Notes: a model not told the origin generated them from the letters alone. Counted from the first letter of the stretch, positions 1,242 to 61,890 are shown. The stretch is 64,000 bases of DNA from Camelus dromedarius (GCF_036321535.1 NC_087436.1:26290001-26354000), one strand, 5' to 3'. Translations and numbers: made by a program.

Positions 1242-2492
1242 TTTAGTAACAAAAAAGAAATAAACAGTTCTTATCAAAGATTTAAGTACCATGTAGTGCA
1301 TGAAACATATTTGTGGGAAATGTGGGCTTTTGCTTTGTTAAAGGAAAATTAAAATTTAAGCAAGTGTACAAAAAAAATCTCTGATGAGGCAATCTATTTG
1401 ATTAAGGATTCAAGGGTAGAAACATTAAAGCTAGGTATGGTTCAAAGCACTCACACCGTCTCAGTGTGGCTTTGCTCTGAGAGCAAGCACAGAAGTTATT
1501 TGATTGATGCACCCTTTCCTTCTCCAGTGTCTACAATTTGCGTTCCAAATGAAAGTCAGGAAACATACACAAGATCATTTTTTGGAATGAAGTGTGGAAT
1601 ACAAATTAAGGTAGCTTAATTTTTTTAAATGCTTGATTTCTATTTTCCCGTCCATTTTTGTTTTCAATTGCCTTATGGGTATGAAGAGTTACTGTTAGTT
1701 TAAAAAAAGAAGTGCTGGTTTTGGATGTGACAAATTTCAAAAGAATAAGATTCATATCAAAGGACCGCATTATCACACAGTTAGGGGGTGAGGCATAAAT
1801 TCAGCAACGTGATTCACTGCCAGTGTATAATAGCAGGATAGCACCTTAAAAACTGCACACACTGCTATGCCTTTTCTAACAAAAATAAAAAGAGCAGATG
1901 AACAAATGGCTACTTTTCTCAGCAGCTCTGTGAGATGCTTAGGTGCTAATGTTTCTAAATGAAGAGAATAGAAGTGCCACAGCTATTTTAGAGACCTTAG
2001 TAGTCAAAAAAAAAAAAAAACCAGTACATTGTTAACTTTTACATGACTCACTTTTAACATAGCTAGTCATTAACCAAGACTTACTTTGGGGTTTTCCTTT
2101 TTTTAAGGCAGTTTATCTTTTGGCTTCTAAAATTAAGTGCTTTGTTTCTGGGAGTGCCAGAAAATGTTGTTGTTACTGTAAAAGAATAGAATACTATAAC
2201 ATTGATCAGTGTATCAATGATGTTTTCCCCCTAGAAAAGCCATGAAAAATATGTTAGATTATCATTAGCTAAGACACCTTGAAAATAGCAGTATTGTTTG
2301 GGTTATAATAAATACAGAAATCTATATAGAATTTTACCCATGTATTGTTTTAAATGAATGCCCACTTATTTTTATAATCCTCATTTTAGAATGCAACGAC
2401 TCTATTAAGACCCTGGGTCATATCGCTCTTTCTTTCTTTTTCTTTTTTTTTTTTTAAAGAATTGCGACATTTTTTTGGTTCTGACTACTTAA

Positions 2493-2508
2493 CCAGAAGG
2501 TGGCAGCA
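2493..2508 (+). promoter_or_regulatory. Candidate CTCF core motif
   Basis: CCAGAAGGTGGCAGCA vs CCASYAGRKGGCRS: one mismatch; lies in apparently unique sequence. Confidence 0.35.
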
Positions 2509-2769
2509 TAGCTCTTTGGTTGCTTGGAAGAAATGTTCTGAAATTTTAAGTAATCAAAAGAACTCCTTTATGGTGATTTAAAAAAAAAAAAGTTTTTCTG
2601 TATGCTTCATGTATTTCTTTTTTTCCATACGATATTTATGCATAGGCATATAATATTTAGGTATTAGTTTTACAGAAGATTAGAAATTGCCTTTTCAGAT
2701 AGATTCTGTGATATATAAGCTGTATTTACAACATCATTTTCATTTTTAAATCATAACATTGTAGACCAA

Positions 2770-2890
2770 TAAAGGGACACTTCTAAATTCACTGCCTCAC
2801 CCTTACCATTTTACACGTTGAAAAAACATAGAGTCCTAGAAAGATAAAGTGATGTGTCCAAGATCAATGTCAGGTAGTTTCAGAAATCAG
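2770..2890 (-). mobile_element. MIR SINE fragment
   Basis: CCATTTTACA...AAAACATAGAGTCCTAGAAAGATAAAGTGATGTGTCCAAGATCA resembles the reverse-complement MIR core. Confidence 0.55.
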
Positions 2891-3249
2891 TTCATCATCT
2901 CAATAAAAACTTACTTGGAACTTTTTTTTTTGTTTGTTTGCACAAATGTTGAAATCTGAACTAGAGAGTATTGACAACTACCCATATTTTATTTTGTTTA
3001 TATTTTATAGTGAAATCTCTCTCTCTTCGTTTATTTGGTAAGTTTATGTTAAACTGTATGGAAAGACCATTGGTAAACAGCTGTATTTTTTTCCTGACCA
3101 TTGACATTCTGAAACCAATAAAAAACATCAGATTAGGTGACTAGTCAATGCCAGTTGATATGACAATTTTAAATGAGGAGATGTCACCTTTGTAACCACT
3201 TGTCTCCAATTTTTCAGAATTGTTATAATTGTTCTTTAGAAGATATCTC

Positions 3250-12779: not shown

Positions 12780-13670
12780 CTGACTTTATTTTTTGTTTTA
12801 TTTTTGAGAATGAGCTAGTAACTATGTATGTATATATGCATTTTCTCCTTTTTCAGTTTTATTAGGTAGATCTATTATAGTTTGACTGCAATACACATTA
12901 TATTGCATGTAAATACATATATACAGTATGCTGCATTTTTTAAGTTTACATATATATACTAATTATTATTTCTAAGAACAGATTTGATCTTTAGCTTTTT
13001 TAACATACATAGTTATCAAAGGAATAAAGCCAACTACAAAATAAGAAGCAACAGATAAATAGCTGACTTAAAAAAATGAATTTGAATGGCTTTAGAGGGG
13101 ACATGTACTCTCCAACTGACTTTGGGAACCCCCTGGCTTTTATGATATCTAGGCAAGTTTGGTTTATCAGTATTTGTCCTGGAAAACTCTGCTCCTCTGA
13201 TGTACTGTCTGAAACTTCTCTGCTGTATTTGTCTTAATTGTTTCCCTCTTCTTAGGGACTACTTAAAGTACCATTAAAAATTTTAGAATAGCATTTTTAA
13301 ATTAGTATCTTATATTACCTTCACTTTTCTCCTTACTGACATTTTTTTTTACATTTTTTTATTGAATAATAGTTATTTTACAATGTTGTGGCAAATTCTA
13401 TTGTAGAGCACAATTTTTCAGTCATACATGAACATGTATATATTCATTGTCACATTTTTTTTTGCTATGAGCTACCACAAGATCTTGTATATTTTTCCCT
13501 GTGCTATACAGTATAATCTTGTTTATCTAGTTTATCTAGTCTGCATTTTAAAATCCTAGTCTGTCCCTTCTACCCCCACCCACTTGGCAACCACAACTTT
13601 GTATTCTGTGTCTGTGAGTCTGTTTCTGTTTTGTATTTATGTTTTTGTTTGTTTGTTTGTTTGTTTGTTT

Positions 13671-14039
13671 TTAGATTCCTCATATGAGCGATCTCATATG
13701 GTATTTTTCTTTCTTTTTCTGGCTTACTTCTCTTAGAATGACATTCTCCAGGAACATCCATGTTGCTGCAAATGGCATTATGTTGTCAGTTTTTGTGGCT
13801 GAATAGTATTCCATCATATAAATATACCACATCTTCTTTATTCAATCATCTGTTGATGGGCATCTAGGCTGCTTCCATGTCTTCGCTATTGCAGATAGTG
13901 CTGCTATGAACATTGGGGTGCAGGTGTCATTTTGAAGTAGGGTTCCTTCTGGATATATGCCCAGGAGTGGGATTCCTGGGTCATATGGTAAGTCTATTCC
14001 TAGTCTTTTGAGGAATCTCCATACTGTTTTCCACAGTGG
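13671..14039 (-). pseudogene. L1 ORF2p C-terminal remnant (~123 codons), with in-frame stops
   Basis: PLWKTVWRFLKRLGIDLPYDPGIPLLGIYP...TPMFIAAL...WKQPRCPSTDD*IKKMWYIYMMEYYSA; terminal TAA at 13673-13671. Confidence 0.92.
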
Positions 14040-14180
14040 CTTTCCTTGCTTCCCTCTCCCACTCAATGATTTAGATGTCTTCTTTTACAATTTTGTGTTT
14101 ATTCTTTTTGTAATTCATGGCAGTTATCTCCTTTCCAGTTATGAGTTTCTCATTTTTGTAGCATCCTGCTTCTTTTCTAT

Positions 14181-15081
14181 TTAGAGTAGACCTGTGAATA
14201 TTCCTTTTAGCATGGATTTAGTGTTGCTAAACTCTTTGAGTTTTTGCTTGTCTGTGAAGTTCTTTATCTCTCCCTCTATTCTAAAGGATAACCTTGCTGG
14301 ATAGCGTATCCTTGGCTGCATCCTTTTTTCATTCAGGACTTTGCATATATCTTGCCCACTCCCTTCTGGCCTGTAGTGTTTGTGTAGAGAAATCAGCTGA
14401 GAGCCTTATGGGGGTTCCCTTGTAACTCACTCTTTGTTTTTCTCTTGCTGCCTTTAGGATCGTTTCTTTATCCTTGACTCTGGCCATCTTGATTATGATA
14501 TGTCTTGGTGTGGGTCTGTGTGGGTTCTTCCTGTTTGGGACCCTCTGAGCCTCCTGTACTTGGATATCTGATTCCTTTAGATTTGGGAAGTCTTCAGTCA
14601 TGATTTCTTCAAATACCTTTTCAATCCCCTTTGTTCTTTCTCCCCCTTCTGGAACCCCTATTATGCATAGATTGGCATGCTTTATATTATCCCATAGGTC
14701 CCTTATATTGTTTTCATTGTTTTTTATTTGTATTTCTCTCAGCTGTTCTGATTGGGTGCTTTCTATTGTCCTGTCTTCTAGGTCACTTATTCGTTCCTCT
14801 GCATTATCTAGCCTGCTTTGTACAGCCTTTAGGTCAGCTCTCATCTCAGCAAATGAGTTTACTAATTCTACTTGGTTCTTCTTTATAGCTTCTATTTCAT
14901 TTTTGACATATTTTATATCTCTAAACACTGTTTCTTTAAGTTCCTTCAGTACTTTGATCAGTCCTTTTTTGGAATCTTGATCTAGTAGGCCATCAATGTC
15001 TATTTCCTTGATCATGCTTTCAGGGGATTTCTCTTGATCTTTTAATTGGGAGTGGTTCCTTGGCTTCTTCATATTGCTCAT
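14181..15081 (-). pseudogene. L1 ORF1p (coiled coil, RRM, CTD), ~299 aa after correcting one frameshift
   Basis: 250-aa ORF with SRLDNAEERISDLED, NLCIIGVPE, TPRHIIIKM, ILKAAREKQ, PIRLSADFS, ARREW; removing one extra G at 14355-14357 restores QDICKVLNEKRMQPRIRYPARLSFRIEGEIKNFTDKQKLKEF...GLL* ending at 14181. Confidence 0.93.
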
Positions 15082-16422
15082 ATCTCTCTGGCACTGTGGC
15101 TTAAGGAGTATCAGTTATCTAGTTCTCCTGGAGATGGTGTGCTCTTAATGATTTTATCGAGAGCTCTTTGTGTCTTCGCCCTGTTTCGCGAACTCAGCTT
15201 GCTGTTTCCAGAGGCCCTCTGTTGGTGCCCTCATCTGTGCTGCTCCCAGTGGCTGTGGGCTAGCAGATCGCACCCCCTCCTAACACTGGGTCAGGACCTG
15301 AACTCTTACCTGGTGGGTGGGCGGGTCACTCCCCTTCCTGATGCCGCAGTCAGATGCTGCGCTTGGCGGGGAGGCCGGTGGGCGTATTGCACCCTCTCCC
15401 GGCACCGTGGTCAGGTGCTGCATAACTGCCATGAAGGTGAGTGGCTGCCCGCCCTCTCCTGGCACCGGTTGCTCTGCTCCTCTGTGCAGCTGCCCACTCC
15501 GCCTCCGGTTGACACTCCAAAGGCAAGCTCGGGGAAGACCACGGAACGGCCCCGCCCCTGCTCCGTGCCAAATCTCAGCTCCTTGTTTGTCTTGGCGGCA
15601 CAAGTTCTCTGAGGTGCAAGGGCAGAAAGATCCTATCTGCCTTGGGCTAAAAAACAAGTCTCAGCTCTGCCCAGGAGGTTGTGGAGTCCCCTGGTGTGAA
15701 TTCAGGTCTCGGCCCTGCCCCCACCCAGGCTACACACAGGAGGAGATGGTGGCTGTGGCAGAGCCCCGCCTCTCTTCTCGTGAGATGCACCAGTAATGGC
15801 GGCACAAGTCTGAGGTTACAAAGGCTACGGCGCCCCTCCCCCCAGGGCATACCAGCCGTGTTGCTTTGCTTTTTTCGCAGCTTATGGGGGACCAAGGTTG
15901 TTCTGCTCCGTATCCACTCCCAGCCATGGCACACAGCCTCCTGCGGTCCCCCGGGGCTGCCTCAGTGCAGCCGCCCCAGTCCTTCACCCGGCTCAGGCAG
16001 CCTGTCCCGGTCCCCGCTGCCGGCTGGCATCTCAGGCTCGGTGTCGTGGGGACCCTTTGTGCCTGTTTAATTCAGTTCTGTCGGTCAAGGGGTGCTTGGG
16101 GCAGATCTGAGCCTCAGAGGCTCCCTCTCCATCCCGCTGGCCTCTCCGTTGGAGAGGGGAGACCCAGCAAACGAGCGCCAGTCCTCCTTTGCCGCTCCCT
16201 CCCCATGGGACTGGTCCCATACTGTTTTGCTTTTTCTTCTTTCTTTTTTCCTTTTCTCCTACCAGATGTTTTGGTGTCCTTGTCTTTCGAAGAGGGCAAT
16301 GCTCTGTTGGAGTTCGGTAGGTGCTCTGGTTGGCTGAGTAGGTCCGTAGATGTGAGTTTTGGTGTATTTGTGGGAGAGGGTGAGCTACAAGCGTCCTTCT
16401 ACTCCACCATCTTGCTTCTCTC
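15082..16422 (-). promoter_or_regulatory. L1 5'UTR internal promoter, CpG-island-like
   Basis: 1.34-kb GC/CpG-rich block, by far the most GC-rich part of the window; 5' end GAGAGAAGCAAGATGGTGG carries the YY1-type CAAGATGG motif typical of L1 starts. Confidence 0.85.
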
Positions 16423-16581
16423 CCTTACTGACATTTTAAATATAAGAATGTGATATATCTGATAAACTAAGTTCTTGATAACTCAATTTTCTCTTTATAT
16501 TTTCATATCAAGCCCATCTATATAGCATCTTATTTTAAGTTACTAAAATGACTGTTAAAGATAGAACAGATAAATCTATAT

Positions 16582-18724: not shown

Positions 18725-19830
18725 AGAATAAAAGAGAAGAAAGAGCATCATAGCAGATGGAAGCTGGTAACAATTTGAAAACTATAGGGCAAGTGGACAA
18801 GTGATATGAGACAGAATGTAGGTGGGATTGAAAACAGGTGGATGAATAATAGAAAGTCAGTAAAAGGAGAACTTAAATTCTAAAATGTCCTCTCCCACTC
18901 CTACTCAAAAACAAAATAGAACAAAACAACAATAACCTCTTGCCATTTTGGCAAAGATAGACAGCTTACTCTGGAATGTTGGTAAATTCTGATACACAAG
19001 GCACAGCTGTGGAAAGGAGTGGCCAATTTAATAAGATCAATTAAATGGAAGTTTCTTGGTGATTAGCAGGAAACTAGCCAGAGTTTCCTGAAAACCTCCC
19101 AGAATTTTTAAAGTTAGAGTTACAACTCCCACCCCTCAAGAAGCAAAATTGAATTATTGCTTCCTTTAACTAATCAGCACAAGAGAAAGTATACTCTCAG
19201 TGGAGTATACCATCCCATAGTGAAATGGCCTTGATTGTTGGCTTACTATACCACTGTGGTCCACACTGAGGTAGGCAGAGTTCTAACATGACTCCTGATG
19301 ACCCACAGCCTCATATAATCCCCTCCTCTGAGTATGGGAGGGACCTGTGAATAGGATGGGATATCACTTCAGTTATAAGGTCACTTTATATGTTAAAAGT
19401 GGAAGGATTTTACAGATGTAATTTAGATGTTTAATCAGTTGACTCTGAGTTTATAAAAAGGGAGATTATCCAGGGTGGGCATGACCTAAACAGATGAGCC
19501 CTTAAAAGAGACTTAAAACAACAGCAGACATATTCCTTTGAGTCTTGAAATAGAAAACTGTCATGTTATCTAGGGTTTGATAACAACCCCTGGCCAGCTA
19601 TCAGGAAGAGAACATGGACCTCAGTCCTGAAACAGTGAGAATTTCTGCAATTAAAATTCTGCTAACGATCTGAATGAAGCTGGAAATGGATTCTTACCCA
19701 GTAGAGCCTCTGGCTGAGAATGCAGCCTGGCCAACCCTTTCATCTCAGCCTTGTGAAACCCTGAGCAGAAAACTCCTCTGAGCCATGCCCAGACTTCTCA
19801 CCTACAGAAGTGTGAGATTAAAATGGATTT

Positions 19831-19934
19831 TTTATTGAAGTATAGTTAGTTTACAATGTTGTGTCAGTTTCTGGTGTACAGCATAATAGTTCAGTTATAC
19901 ATATACATACATATTTTAGTTTGCATATTATTTT
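19831..19934 (-). mobile_element. 5'-truncated L1 3'UTR end (~100 bp)
   Basis: TTTATTGAAGTATAGTTAGTTTACAATGTTGTGTCAGTTTCTGGTGTACAGCATAA; homologous to the 3' end of the 13346-16422 element. Confidence 0.85.
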
Positions 19935-20066
19935 GGGTATAGCTCAGTCATAGAGCACATGCTTAGCATGAATGAGGGCCTGGGTTCAATCCCCAGTAGC
20001 TCAATTAAATAAACAAACAAACAAACAAACAAGCCTAACTACCTCCCCCCAAAATAAAAAAATAAA
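19935..20066 (+). mobile_element. tRNA-Ala-derived SINE (camelid vic-1 type)
   Basis: GGGTATAGCTCAGTCATAGAGCACATGCTTAGCATG...GGGTTCAATCCCCAGTA (A and B boxes), then (AAAC)n-CCTAACTACCTCCCCCC-A-rich tail. Confidence 0.88.
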
Positions 20067-45600: not shown

Positions 45601-46033
45601 CAGTTCTATTCATTTGATATCTGTTGAGTACTTGTTGTGGCACATGTTATACTTAGTCTTGCAGAGAGTGCTATGTAAGCACGGTAAGTTTAGCCACAAA
45701 GGAAAACAATAAGTGAGGGTCTAAAAATTAAAATTCTTTTAGCACTAGGGTAGATATTTTTCTTAAAAATTATTTCATGAATATGAACTCCCAATGCTAT
45801 AAATGACCTTAATTCCTGCCAATCCACTTCCAAAAACAAAAGTTAGTTTAAAAAAATAAAAAAGCATGATAGGAGGACTTTACAAATGTATAAAACTCTC
45901 ATGTAAGTTACACTATTATAGTTGCTGCTTCAGGTTGGCCAACGTGGTCAGCTTTCGTCATAATACAGTGCATTAAAATCTCATTTGACTAAACACAGGC
46001 AAACGGCATAGCAGCTGGTTATACAATATTTTA

Positions 46034-46276
46034 TTTTATTTTATTTATTTTTTTAACATTTTTATTGATTTATAATCATTTACAATGTTGTGTCAAATTC
46101 CAGCATGGAGCACAATTTTTCAGTTATACATGGACATACATATATTCATTGTCACATTTTTTTCTCTGTGAGCTACCATAAGATCTTGTATATATTTCCC
46201 TGTGCTATACAGTATAATCTTGTTTATCTATCATACAATTTTGAAATCCTAGTCTATCCCTTCCCACCCGCCACCC
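46034..46276 (-). mobile_element. 5'-truncated young L1 (3'UTR only), same family as 13346-16422
   Basis: Colinear with ~13350-13580; TSD TACAATATTTTA at 46022-46033 and 46277-46288; T-rich tail. Confidence 0.92.
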
Positions 46277-47393
46277 TACAATATTTTAGAAAAACTTTAA
46301 AGTTCTGGAGAATAAATGAGTTGCTAAATGATGTGATTGAATCAAGGTTTTCTTGTCGAACATAATTAGCTGAAAATAGGAGTAGGTCAGTGGTCAGACT
46401 TCCCTGTCAGTACCCAACCACTGGAAATAGCCTTAGGGAGGCAAGAATCCCATATTTTAAACCCAGATTGAAGGAAAACTACGAAGAAGGGAATAAGTCT
46501 TCCACAGAATAAATCTTTGCATTGCCAAATAAATAAATAAACAAATAAATAAAATAAAGAGAAAAACAAGCCTTTGTTACTCAAGCTGTTTCAATAACAG
46601 TTTTCTAGTAGGATAACTGTCAATCCTAGGACACATGGGTGGTGTGGAAACCAAATGTGTTTGTGAGATATGTCCAATATGGTCACTGATGATTGAAAGC
46701 ATTATCATGTTCACATTGACATTTACCACCTATAAAGTGAAAAATAACCCTTGTAATAATCATTCTTGCAGTGACCTTATAACAATAGAGATGTTACATG
46801 GCTTGTGAAAATTAAAATATGATCCTTTTATGGTCAGTATCGACACATGCTATGTTAATTCTTTTTGACAGTGTTCTTCCTTCTGATGAAAATTTTATTT
46901 GCTCACAGAGGTACCATGTATATCTTTAAGAGTTACTCTTCACTCCAGAACCTACATGTGATGCTTTTATTCACATAACAAAATTTTAAAAAAATAATTG
47001 CATGTTTTATGTCTGCTAGAAGGTGAAAAGACCTACTGAGTACAAAATTTACCCAGAAAGGATAAAGTGTGCCTTCTGTTTCAGGGGTTCTGTTAGTCTT
47101 CTTACTAAACTGCATGTCCTGCCTCTGATTAGCTTTAAACTTTCAACATCAAGGTAACTTTGGTTTCTTCATGTAAAAAATGGAGTTACAGAGCTATCGT
47201 TCAATGACCCTATCTTTACAAATAGTACAACAAAAAAGTTTTAATCTACAAATATTTCAGAAAGCTTTAATATATACATATTTCCATTTTCTGCACCTTG
47301 CAAACTTTTTGATAAGTGTATGTTTCATCCCTCAATCAAACTTTAAATTATTTTAGCTATATGTTGAAAATCCAGCTTACTATTTGTCAGTCA

Positions 47394-50384: not shown

Positions 50385-52300
50385 GCTTACCTTTAGGAAA
50401 AAAAAAATTCTTAGAGTGGTTTTAGGTTTACAACAAAATTGAGAGAAACATACAGATACTTCCATATAACCCCTGCCCCAACACATGCATACCCACCCCC
50501 AATTATCAATTTTACTCGCCAAAATGATGCTTTTGTTTTTTTTAAACCAAAGATGAACTGAAATGACACATCATCACTAAAGTCTATAGTTCATCTTAGG
50601 GTTCACTCTTGGTGTTGTACATTCTATGGGTTTGGAGAAATGTATAACGTACATCAATTACTATAATGTCAGAAATTAGAGTGTTTTGCCCTAAAAATCC
50701 TCTGAGCTGCACCTGTTCATCTCTGCTCATCACCTCCACCAAACCCTTGCAAACACTGATCTTTTTATTGTCTCCATATTTTTGCCTTTTCCAGAAAGCT
50801 ATACAGTTGGAGTATGTAGGCCTTTTCAGATTGACTTATTTCACTTACTAATATGCATTTAGGTTTCCTGCTTGGTTTTTCATGGCTTGATAGCTCATTT
50901 CTTTTTAGCTCTGAATGATATTCATTGTCTGGATACACCACATTTTATCTGTATACCTACTGAAGGATATCTTGATTGCTTCCAAGTTTTGGCAATTAGG
51001 AATAAAGTTGCTATAGACATCTGTGGGCAGGTTTTTGTGTGGACATAAGTTTTCACCTCCTTTTGGTAAACAAGTGTCAAAGAGCATGATTGCTAGAATG
51101 CATGGAGTTGGTGAGTTGTGTAAGAAATCACCAAACTGTCTTCCAAAATAGCTGTATTGTTTGCATTCTCACCCATTCTTATTCTCAGCAATGAATGAAA
51201 GTTCCTATTGTTGCACATACTTGCCAGCATTTGATGTTGTCAGTGTTCCAGATTTGGTCATTATAATAAGTATTTAATGGTATCTTATCTTGTCTTAATT
51301 TGCATTTTCCTGATGTCATATGATATGATCTTTCCATGTGCTCATTTTTCTTCCCTAGCTTTTCTTTGGTGAGGCATCTGTTAAGTTCTTTGGCCCATTT
51401 TAAAATCAGTTTTCTGTTTTAGTATTGTTGAGTTTTAAGAGTTCTTTGTGTAATTTGAATAACAGTCCTTTATCAAAAGTGTCTTTTGCAAATATTTTCT
51501 ACCATTATGTGTCTTGTCTTCTTATTCTCTTGACATTATCTCTCAGAGAGAAAAGGTTTTGTTTGTTTTGTTTTGTTTTTCATGACATCCAATGTATCAA
51601 TTATTTCTTTCATAGATTTTGTCTTTACTGTGTTTTATCTAAAAAAAATCATTGCTATAGCCAAGGTCATCTAGGTTTCCTCCTGTTATCTTGTTATCTT
51701 CTGGGGGTTTTATAGTTTTGTCTTCATTTATGTCTAGGTCCATTTGGAGTTAATTTTTGTGAAGAGTGTAAGGTCTCTGTCCAAATTCTTTTTTGGGGGA
51801 GATGTAGATATTCAGTTATGCCAGCACTATTTGTTGAAAAGACTGACTATCTTTGCTCCATTGTATTGCTTTTGCTCCTTTTATCATATTTACGGAGTTC
51901 TATTTCTGGGTTCTCTACTCTGTTTTACTAACAGTCTATTCTTTTGCCAGCACAACACTTTCTTGATTATAATAGCTATATAGTAAATTTTGAAGTCAAA
52001 TAGCATCAGTTCTCCAACTTTGTTCTTCTTAATATTCTTCATCCTCATCATCTCAGGCTTTATACACGGAATCCCCCAAATGGAGGGGGTGAGGGTTTTC
52101 TACTCCTCCCTAGAATGGGTGGGTGTAGGAGAAAGGTTTGTATTAAGGAAAATTAAATTTCATAACAAGTTTCTCTTAAACAAAACAAAACAAAACAAAA
52201 CAAAAAGAGCATCTACTTTTTGCCTCTCCATATGAACCTTAGCATTGATTGTTTGATATCCATAAATTAACTTGCTGGGGTTTTGATTGGGATTGCATGA
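50385..52300 (-). mobile_element. L1MC1-like 3'UTR and ORF2 3' part
   Basis: AGGGTTCACTCTTGGTGTTGTACATTCTATGGGTTTGG, GCCCTAAAAATCCTCTG, TTGCTTCCAAGTTTTGGCAATT, CCAGCACTATTTGTTGAAAAGACT. Confidence 0.9.
52037..52206 (+). pseudogene. Short polyadenylated non-L1 insert (probable retrocopied mRNA 3' end)
   Basis: Interrupts L1MC1; ATTAAA at 52152-52157, 20 nt before an (AAAAC)n tail at 52178-52206. Confidence 0.55.
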
Positions 52301-61800: not shown

Positions 61801-61890
61801 TTTTTTTTTTTTTTAATGAAGTTCCTGGGGATTGAACCAGGACCTCAAGCACACTAACCACGCATTCTGCCACTGAGCTATACCCCCACT
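61801..61890 (-). mobile_element. tRNA-Ala-derived SINE (camelid vic-1 type)
   Basis: Reverse complement GGGGGTATAGCTCAGTGGCAGAATGCGTGGTTAGTGTGCTTGAGGTCCTGGTTCAATCCCCAGGAACTTCATT(A)n. Confidence 0.85.

Follow-up and report, generated by a model that had tools for sequence, protein, structure and literature searches.

An ORF1-only L1 copy in the dromedary genome as a candidate member of a small HAL1-like family

The minus strand of a 64,000-nucleotide stretch of Camelus dromedarius DNA (GCF_036321535.1 NC_087436.1:26290001-26354000; the window) carries an L1 element in which the 5' untranslated region, ORF1 and part of the inter-ORF spacer are joined directly to the end of ORF2. This raises the question of whether the locus is a single damaged full-length L1 or a copy of an ORF1-only lineage that spread in this shortened form, and of how the junction between spacer and ORF2 was made.

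Structure and insertion of the element

The element spans 3077 bp between exact 15-bp TSDs at 13331-13345 (3' copy) and 16423-16437 (5' copy), exactly where a preliminary description of this DNA had placed them, and lies on the minus strand, as do the features given below for it. At up to one mismatch, the 15-mer has only these two matches in the window, against a chance expectation of 0.05. TTT precedes the 5' copy on the element strand, which makes this an L1 endonuclease-type target site (TT/AAAA type), and a short, degenerate A-tail is present at 13346-13360. Target site, duplication and tail together show that the element was inserted by target-primed reverse transcription.

The L1 5'UTR (15082-16422) extends for 1341 nt up to the ATG at 15081, is G+C-rich and presumably contains the internal promoter. 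Over its first 1200 nt the G+C content is 53-64% and the observed/expected ratio of CpG is 0.39-0.49, compared with only 0.07-0.12 over element positions 1501-3000, in agreement with the earlier account of a 1.34-kb CpG-rich 5'UTR; its CpGs have partly decayed. The same 5'UTR type is translated in two gene models, dromedary KAB1270384.1 and alpaca XP_072828304.1, the match of the alpaca model beginning at 16398, 24 nt inside the element. ORF1 (14181-15081; about 299 codons) has the REKQ, ARR and YPARLS motifs and encodes an L1-type ORF1p that has the full Pfam set of three ORF1 domains, Tnp_22_trimer (PF17489) and Transposase_22 (PF02994) being found in 14332-15081 and Tnp_22_dsRBD (PF17490) in the next frame. 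The frame is broken in this copy by one extra base near 14355, the single +1 frameshift described previously, and neither part contains a stop codon. Weak matches of ORF1 to the Pfam entries FPP, HBL and ACBP4_C are below the cut-off, fall on the coiled coil and were rejected. The ORF1p sequence is 86-89% identical to two ORF1 proteins of the same lineage and 60% identical to the best pig-like one.

Downstream of ORF1, the 5' part of the inter-ORF spacer occupies 14040-14180. This segment is 141 nt long when its last bases, AG at 14041-14040, are counted and 139 nt when they are excluded, the latter being the length reported earlier. The junction with ORF2 lies at 14039-14046, of which 14046-14040 are the bases that the second locus discussed below appears to have in common with the element. 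ORF2 then begins with PLWKTVW and continues through its last 122 codons and stop (13671-14039), all 3' of the CCHC knuckle and interrupted by two premature stops. Before PLWKTVW, full-length camelid models read HCWWECSLVQ, and the endonuclease (EN), the reverse transcriptase (RT) and the CCHC knuckle are indeed missing from the element; we take the missing part of ORF2 to be about 3.5 kb by the length of mammalian ORF2p, and the rest of the spacer is missing too. The L1 3'UTR (13361-13670) contains a run of (CAAA)n, with AATAAA at 13363-13358. The copy accordingly has the structural features of a HAL1 family member: the L1 5'UTR, ORF1 and 3' end are retained with the A-tail and TSD of an L1-type insertion, and of ORF2 only the last 122 codons are left, so that the HAL1-like design first proposed for this locus is the one that we find.

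The named models that match the ORF2 remnant best come from C. dromedarius and C. bactrianus, with protein identities reaching 94% (84-94% for the named dromedary models among the matches listed). Set against the majority residues of 25 camelid-type models, the remnant has 1 difference in 48. Because the best named matches of the tail are from camels and the same type of 5'UTR is translated in an alpaca model, the element is, by these sequence comparisons, a camelid L1, which upholds its earlier assignment. The copy itself is dead, moderately decayed and without evident function. Since insertion it has acquired one ORF1 frameshift, two premature stops in the tail and a loss of CpG; the two stops in the ORF2 remnant mean that the copy is decayed rather than young, and the preliminary description overstated its case in calling it young. 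ORF1 has no stops in 299 codons and the tail has two in 122 (P=0.08), so that ORF1 is not significantly better kept.

Several other L1 pieces were met in the course of this work. On the minus strand at 46030-46280, a copy of this L1 3'UTR that has lost its 5' part is 84% identical over 241 nt (46048-46276) and has an A-rich tail and a 12-bp TSD read by eye, and a third, older L1 3'-end fragment at 19828-19934 is 78% identical. Adjoining that fragment on the plus strand is a tRNA-Ala-like sequence (19933-20005) that resembles 61801-61885 and is probably a tRNA-derived SINE. Old L1 ORF2 3' fragments lie at 1-198 and at 50500-52300 (minus strand), the latter of which contains a site homologous to the junction. 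Among proteins, P0001 (UniRef A0A8C3H5B0), which is labelled painted turtle, is a camelid-type L1 ORF2 tail (92% identical over 49 residues), likely through contamination or mislabelling. An L1 ORF2 C-terminal stretch also stands at the end of a Bactrian camel GTF2F2 isoform model (P0249, XP_074234302.1), possibly as a result of exonisation or as a prediction artefact.

A probable second locus with the same junction

Evidence on whether the junction recurs comes from the dromedary model KAB1270384.1 (P0254; 941 aa). Residues 417-663 of this protein map to the element's 5'UTR (16200-15195), from which the model runs straight on through ENSKL-R-K-PLWKTVW. Joining GT at 15193 to AG at 14046 on the element's own sequence reproduces this joint, which was given by only one of the eight donor-acceptor pairs that we tried on the element, and the R and K derive from the last five spacer bases. 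KAB1270384.1 differs from the element tail at 7 of 48 residues and carries a 14-residue duplication of its own. The parts of it outside L1 match the window nowhere at a significant level, and their GARP values of 0.38-0.39 are of the GC-rich type whereas those of the window flanks are 0.15-0.16. Given the tail differences, the duplication and the unmatched, GC-rich-type non-L1 parts, we assign KAB1270384.1 to another locus; its 5'UTR is also closer to the element than is that of the alpaca model (45/67 versus 40/67). On the strength of this protein model, it is quite probable that the junction exists at a second dromedary locus. The recurrence that the preliminary description had raised is thus borne out indirectly at one further locus, although no second copy was found at the DNA level in the collections that we scanned, and it is on this one predicted locus that the putative multi-copy status of the element depends.

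What marks the second locus as junction-type is a pair of residues in a protein predicted ab initio. K alone before the tail motif is common, occurring in 15 of 240 motif occurrences among the matches listed, and one such case sits in a full-length-type camelid copy. Should the joint in KAB1270384.1 be a gene-prediction coincidence on a mutated full-length copy, then the element in the window might be an ordinary full-length L1 that underwent a one-off internal deletion at the AG microhomology, either during integration or later. Internal deletions are described as an ordinary form of decay of L1 inserts (PMC5872511), and Gln-to-Lys changes do occur at the site before the tail motif. Moreover, a census of 26 named camelid models, from which P0369 and P0372 were left out as they begin inside the tail, gave 25 informative tail segments in the remaining 24 models, and ordinary ORF2 lies upstream in 24 of these segments and the junction type in one, a share that says little about copy number because predicted genes are biased towards long ORF2 frames. 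In P0376, the first L1 piece shows K ahead of the tail and was counted as full-length type because its upstream sequence reads as off-frame ORF2. Nevertheless, the joint of KAB1270384.1 requires no substitution when derived from a junction-type locus, as opposed to at least two specific substitutions in a full-length copy, or three should the Leu be encoded by TTG, which an off-frame model suggests. In addition, the codon at which KAB1270384.1 resumes after the 5'UTR is precisely that of the junction. We consider a one-off deletion distinctly unlikely for these reasons.

Searches for additional copies were made in proteins and in DNA. Among the 120 and 120 best matches and the best 150 representatives, several residues of spacer origin stand ahead of PLW in no protein. 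When the junction peptide was compared with proteins of 34-111 residues, the best 120 of 2839 matches included only one of camelid type, which has ordinary ORF2 upstream. Similarly, no further junction-type protein appears among the best 150 of 2845 matches of the KAB1270384.1 joint region to 1.84 billion representatives, one of these matches being an alpaca model derived from the 5'UTR. At the DNA level, no camelid L1 sequence was found among candidate stretches of GTDB genomes (0 of 121; 0 of 599) or in viral contigs (0 of 6, 0 of 281 and 0 pattern matches), and the metagenome contigs gave one locus, L001, a short-spacer L1 of 62% identity with a different spacer; as none of these collections yielded any camelid L1 DNA, the metagenome, GTDB and viral scans have no power against recurrence. 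L001 (1-1149) combines a mammalian L1 ORF1 end and a short spacer with SINE-like inserts, and is host DNA.

The junction might instead have arisen once and been spread to the second locus by DNA-level duplication or gene conversion rather than by retrotransposition. Copying of this kind is very unlikely in view of the flanking parts of KAB1270384.1, which are unmatched in the window and sharply different in composition, and of the 7 of 48 tail residues at which the two copies differ. A junction of this type could also be produced by assembly collapse across a full-length L1. In 14 sequencing runs from 8 studies under one species label, we found 0.63-0.69 of the words sampled from a 4.1-kb stretch, a share that reports the presence of the stretch and not its copy number; RNA runs, with shares of 0.11-0.30, were left out of account. 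That not all of the sampled words were found is compatible with a collapse, but most of the stretch is present in these runs and the joint is also seen in the model from another locus, and we hold such an error to be extremely improbable.

The two copies have no family-specific substitution in common in 48 residues, and the one change that is found in both, D to N, occurs also in full-length models. Their divergence from the majority is unequal (1/48 for the element and 8/48 for KAB1270384.1, P=0.03), perhaps implying repeated formation or a long-lived source, which these residues would favour. The unequal departure and the lack of a family-specific shared change argue against a single burst.

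Formation of the junction

The AG at the junction fits splicing and microhomology alike. A spliced L1 retrocopy would have formed by use of a donor in the spacer and of the AG of the ORF2 Gln codon as acceptor, followed by retrotransposition of the spliced RNA, and this might have happened afresh each time from full-length masters or once, in the founder of a family. The 5' side of the junction ends in AAG, resembling an exon end, and Gln (CAG or CAA) stands directly before PLW in nearly all full-length camelid models, which is compatible with CAG. CAG is found at the homologous position in the old in-window L1, where we read TACAG followed, after the breakpoint, by CTATTTTGG, so that the earlier observation of an AG before the breakpoint in that copy is correct. 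Splicing would also account for one and the same junction being present in copies that have diverged unequally and have no substitutions in common, and it has a precedent in the SpIREs, which are reported to make up about 2% of full-length primate L1s (PMC5860796).

The GT donor, however, is hypothetical, and the acceptor tract is a poor one. Purines are dictated by the ORF2 codons at 7 of its 16 positions, leaving 5-9 pyrimidines of 16, and the tract in the old in-window L1 has 4 of 16. The polypyrimidine tract expected of a usable acceptor in a SpIRE is lacking, though the site may be a weak acceptor. A spliced RNA without ORF2 would, in addition, need ORF2p in trans, contrary to the cis preference, and the SpIREs described in PMC5860796 are of the intra-5'UTR or 5'UTR/ORF1 type, unlike the ORF2 deletion seen here. 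The end of the spacer, on the other hand, matches back-translated upstream ORF2 in a 7-nt, 13-bit run that is one base out of register. Of the 2320 positions upstream, 20 give a score as large, and so does 1 of the 248 that end in AG, although the match is a hint only because the test was chosen after the alignment had been seen. As a hint, the near in-register match would favour a template jump or deletion. With a poor acceptor tract and an upstream match that points to a homology-guided jump, the splicing origin put forward in the preliminary description is so far not supported, and we regard a spliced retrocopy as possible but doubtful.

On balance, and with a confidence only slightly better than even, we take the locus to hold one decayed member of a small HAL1-like family that has ORF1 only, exists in multiple copies, derives from the camelid L1 lineage and was born by a jump or deletion. 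The hallmarks of target-primed reverse transcription and the ORF1-only anatomy support this explanation. Its history would have begun with the removal, in a single event, of the remaining spacer and some 3.5 kb of ORF2 from a full-length L1, most likely by an RT template jump or deletion that was guided by the AG and the short upstream match. With its promoter retained, the shortened element would have been transcribed from its own 5'UTR and have produced its ORF1p in cis, and an L1 3' end followed by poly(A) would have allowed the ORF2p of full-length L1s to copy it in trans. Such an element likely works as HAL1 does, with putative supply of ORF2p in trans. Insertion at the present site then took place by target-primed reverse transcription, presumably of a donor RNA that was already shortened, and was followed by decay. 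It is rather improbable that a HAL1-type parasite was born here by splicing, with removal of a spacer-to-Gln intron that spared the promoter and ORF1 and with subsequent copying in trans; were this true, splicing would not have been a dead end for this L1, and the element would make visible how HAL1 can arise from L1.

Comparison with HAL1, SpIREs and other L1 derivatives

HAL1s encode ORF1p only and are described as having several independent origins in mammals (PMC5753468, PMC13756887, PMC3183009), examples being HAL1-1H_Cpo in guinea pig, HAL1-1C_Cja in marmoset and HAL1-3_ML in a bat (PMC5753468, PMC5786205, PMC3627910). Their way of life combines ORF1p made in cis with ORF2p borrowed in trans (PMC3627910, PMC5786205). 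The camel element is like them in having an L1 5'UTR, ORF1 only, an L1 3' end and a TSD, and in its predicted need of ORF2p in trans; it differs in keeping 122 ORF2 codons and in being still near the L1 from which it derives, its tail departing from the majority at 1/48. Guinea pig and marmoset are listed as having HAL1 families of less than 1% divergence, and none is listed for alpaca in that source (PMC3183009). Counts of ORF1-only L1s are 677, 494 and 519 in camelids, compared with an excess in sloth (7898), hyrax (2926) and Myotis lucifugus (3031) (PMC5203782, supplementary table 6); because these counts give no large ORF1-only excess in camelids, any family there would have to be small or else old. 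The term HAL1 does not occur in the main text of a camel survey of transposable elements (PMC8605555), and a bat HAL1 fragment is the only one named in the relevant text of PMC6726744, which has Repbase names such as L1-2_Vpa. We found no camelid HAL1 in the literature that we searched, and the family may already have a name in Repbase or Dfam.

Human SpIREs resemble the camel element in that a precise internal deletion, probably with AG at its 3' breakpoint in the camel, is found in a TSD-flanked L1, and they recur at independent loci, as the camel junction would by our reading of KAB1270384.1 (PMC5860796). SpIREs, however, are dead ends in which part of the promoter or of ORF1 has gone (PMC5860796), whereas the camel deletion takes ORF2 and spares both, the 1341-nt 5'UTR and a full-length ORF1 being retained. 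Twin-priming internal deletions are reported to be short and to come with inversion (bioRxiv 10.1101/2024.08.27.596794), which is absent from the camel element. Autonomous camelid L1s, represented by the dromedary KAB12... models, are close to it in the tail (84-94% identical in protein), in ORF1p (86-89% to same-lineage proteins) and in the 3'UTR, which is as in the 46048-46276 copy, but the element is without EN, RT and the CCHC knuckle. The joining of 5' and 3' parts of a parent with retention of ORF1 places it beside the bipartite non-autonomous LINEs of the ORF1-present type, HeT-A, HAL1 and Ag-Sponge (PMC5786205), from which it differs in having a camelid L1 as parent. If confirmed, the family would add camelids to the mammals in which L1 gave rise to an ORF1-only parasite and would supply lineage markers for camelids. 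Moreover, because the element is still near its parent L1 and its breakpoint is precise to the base, it offers a simple test of whether a HAL1 is born by splicing or by a template jump.
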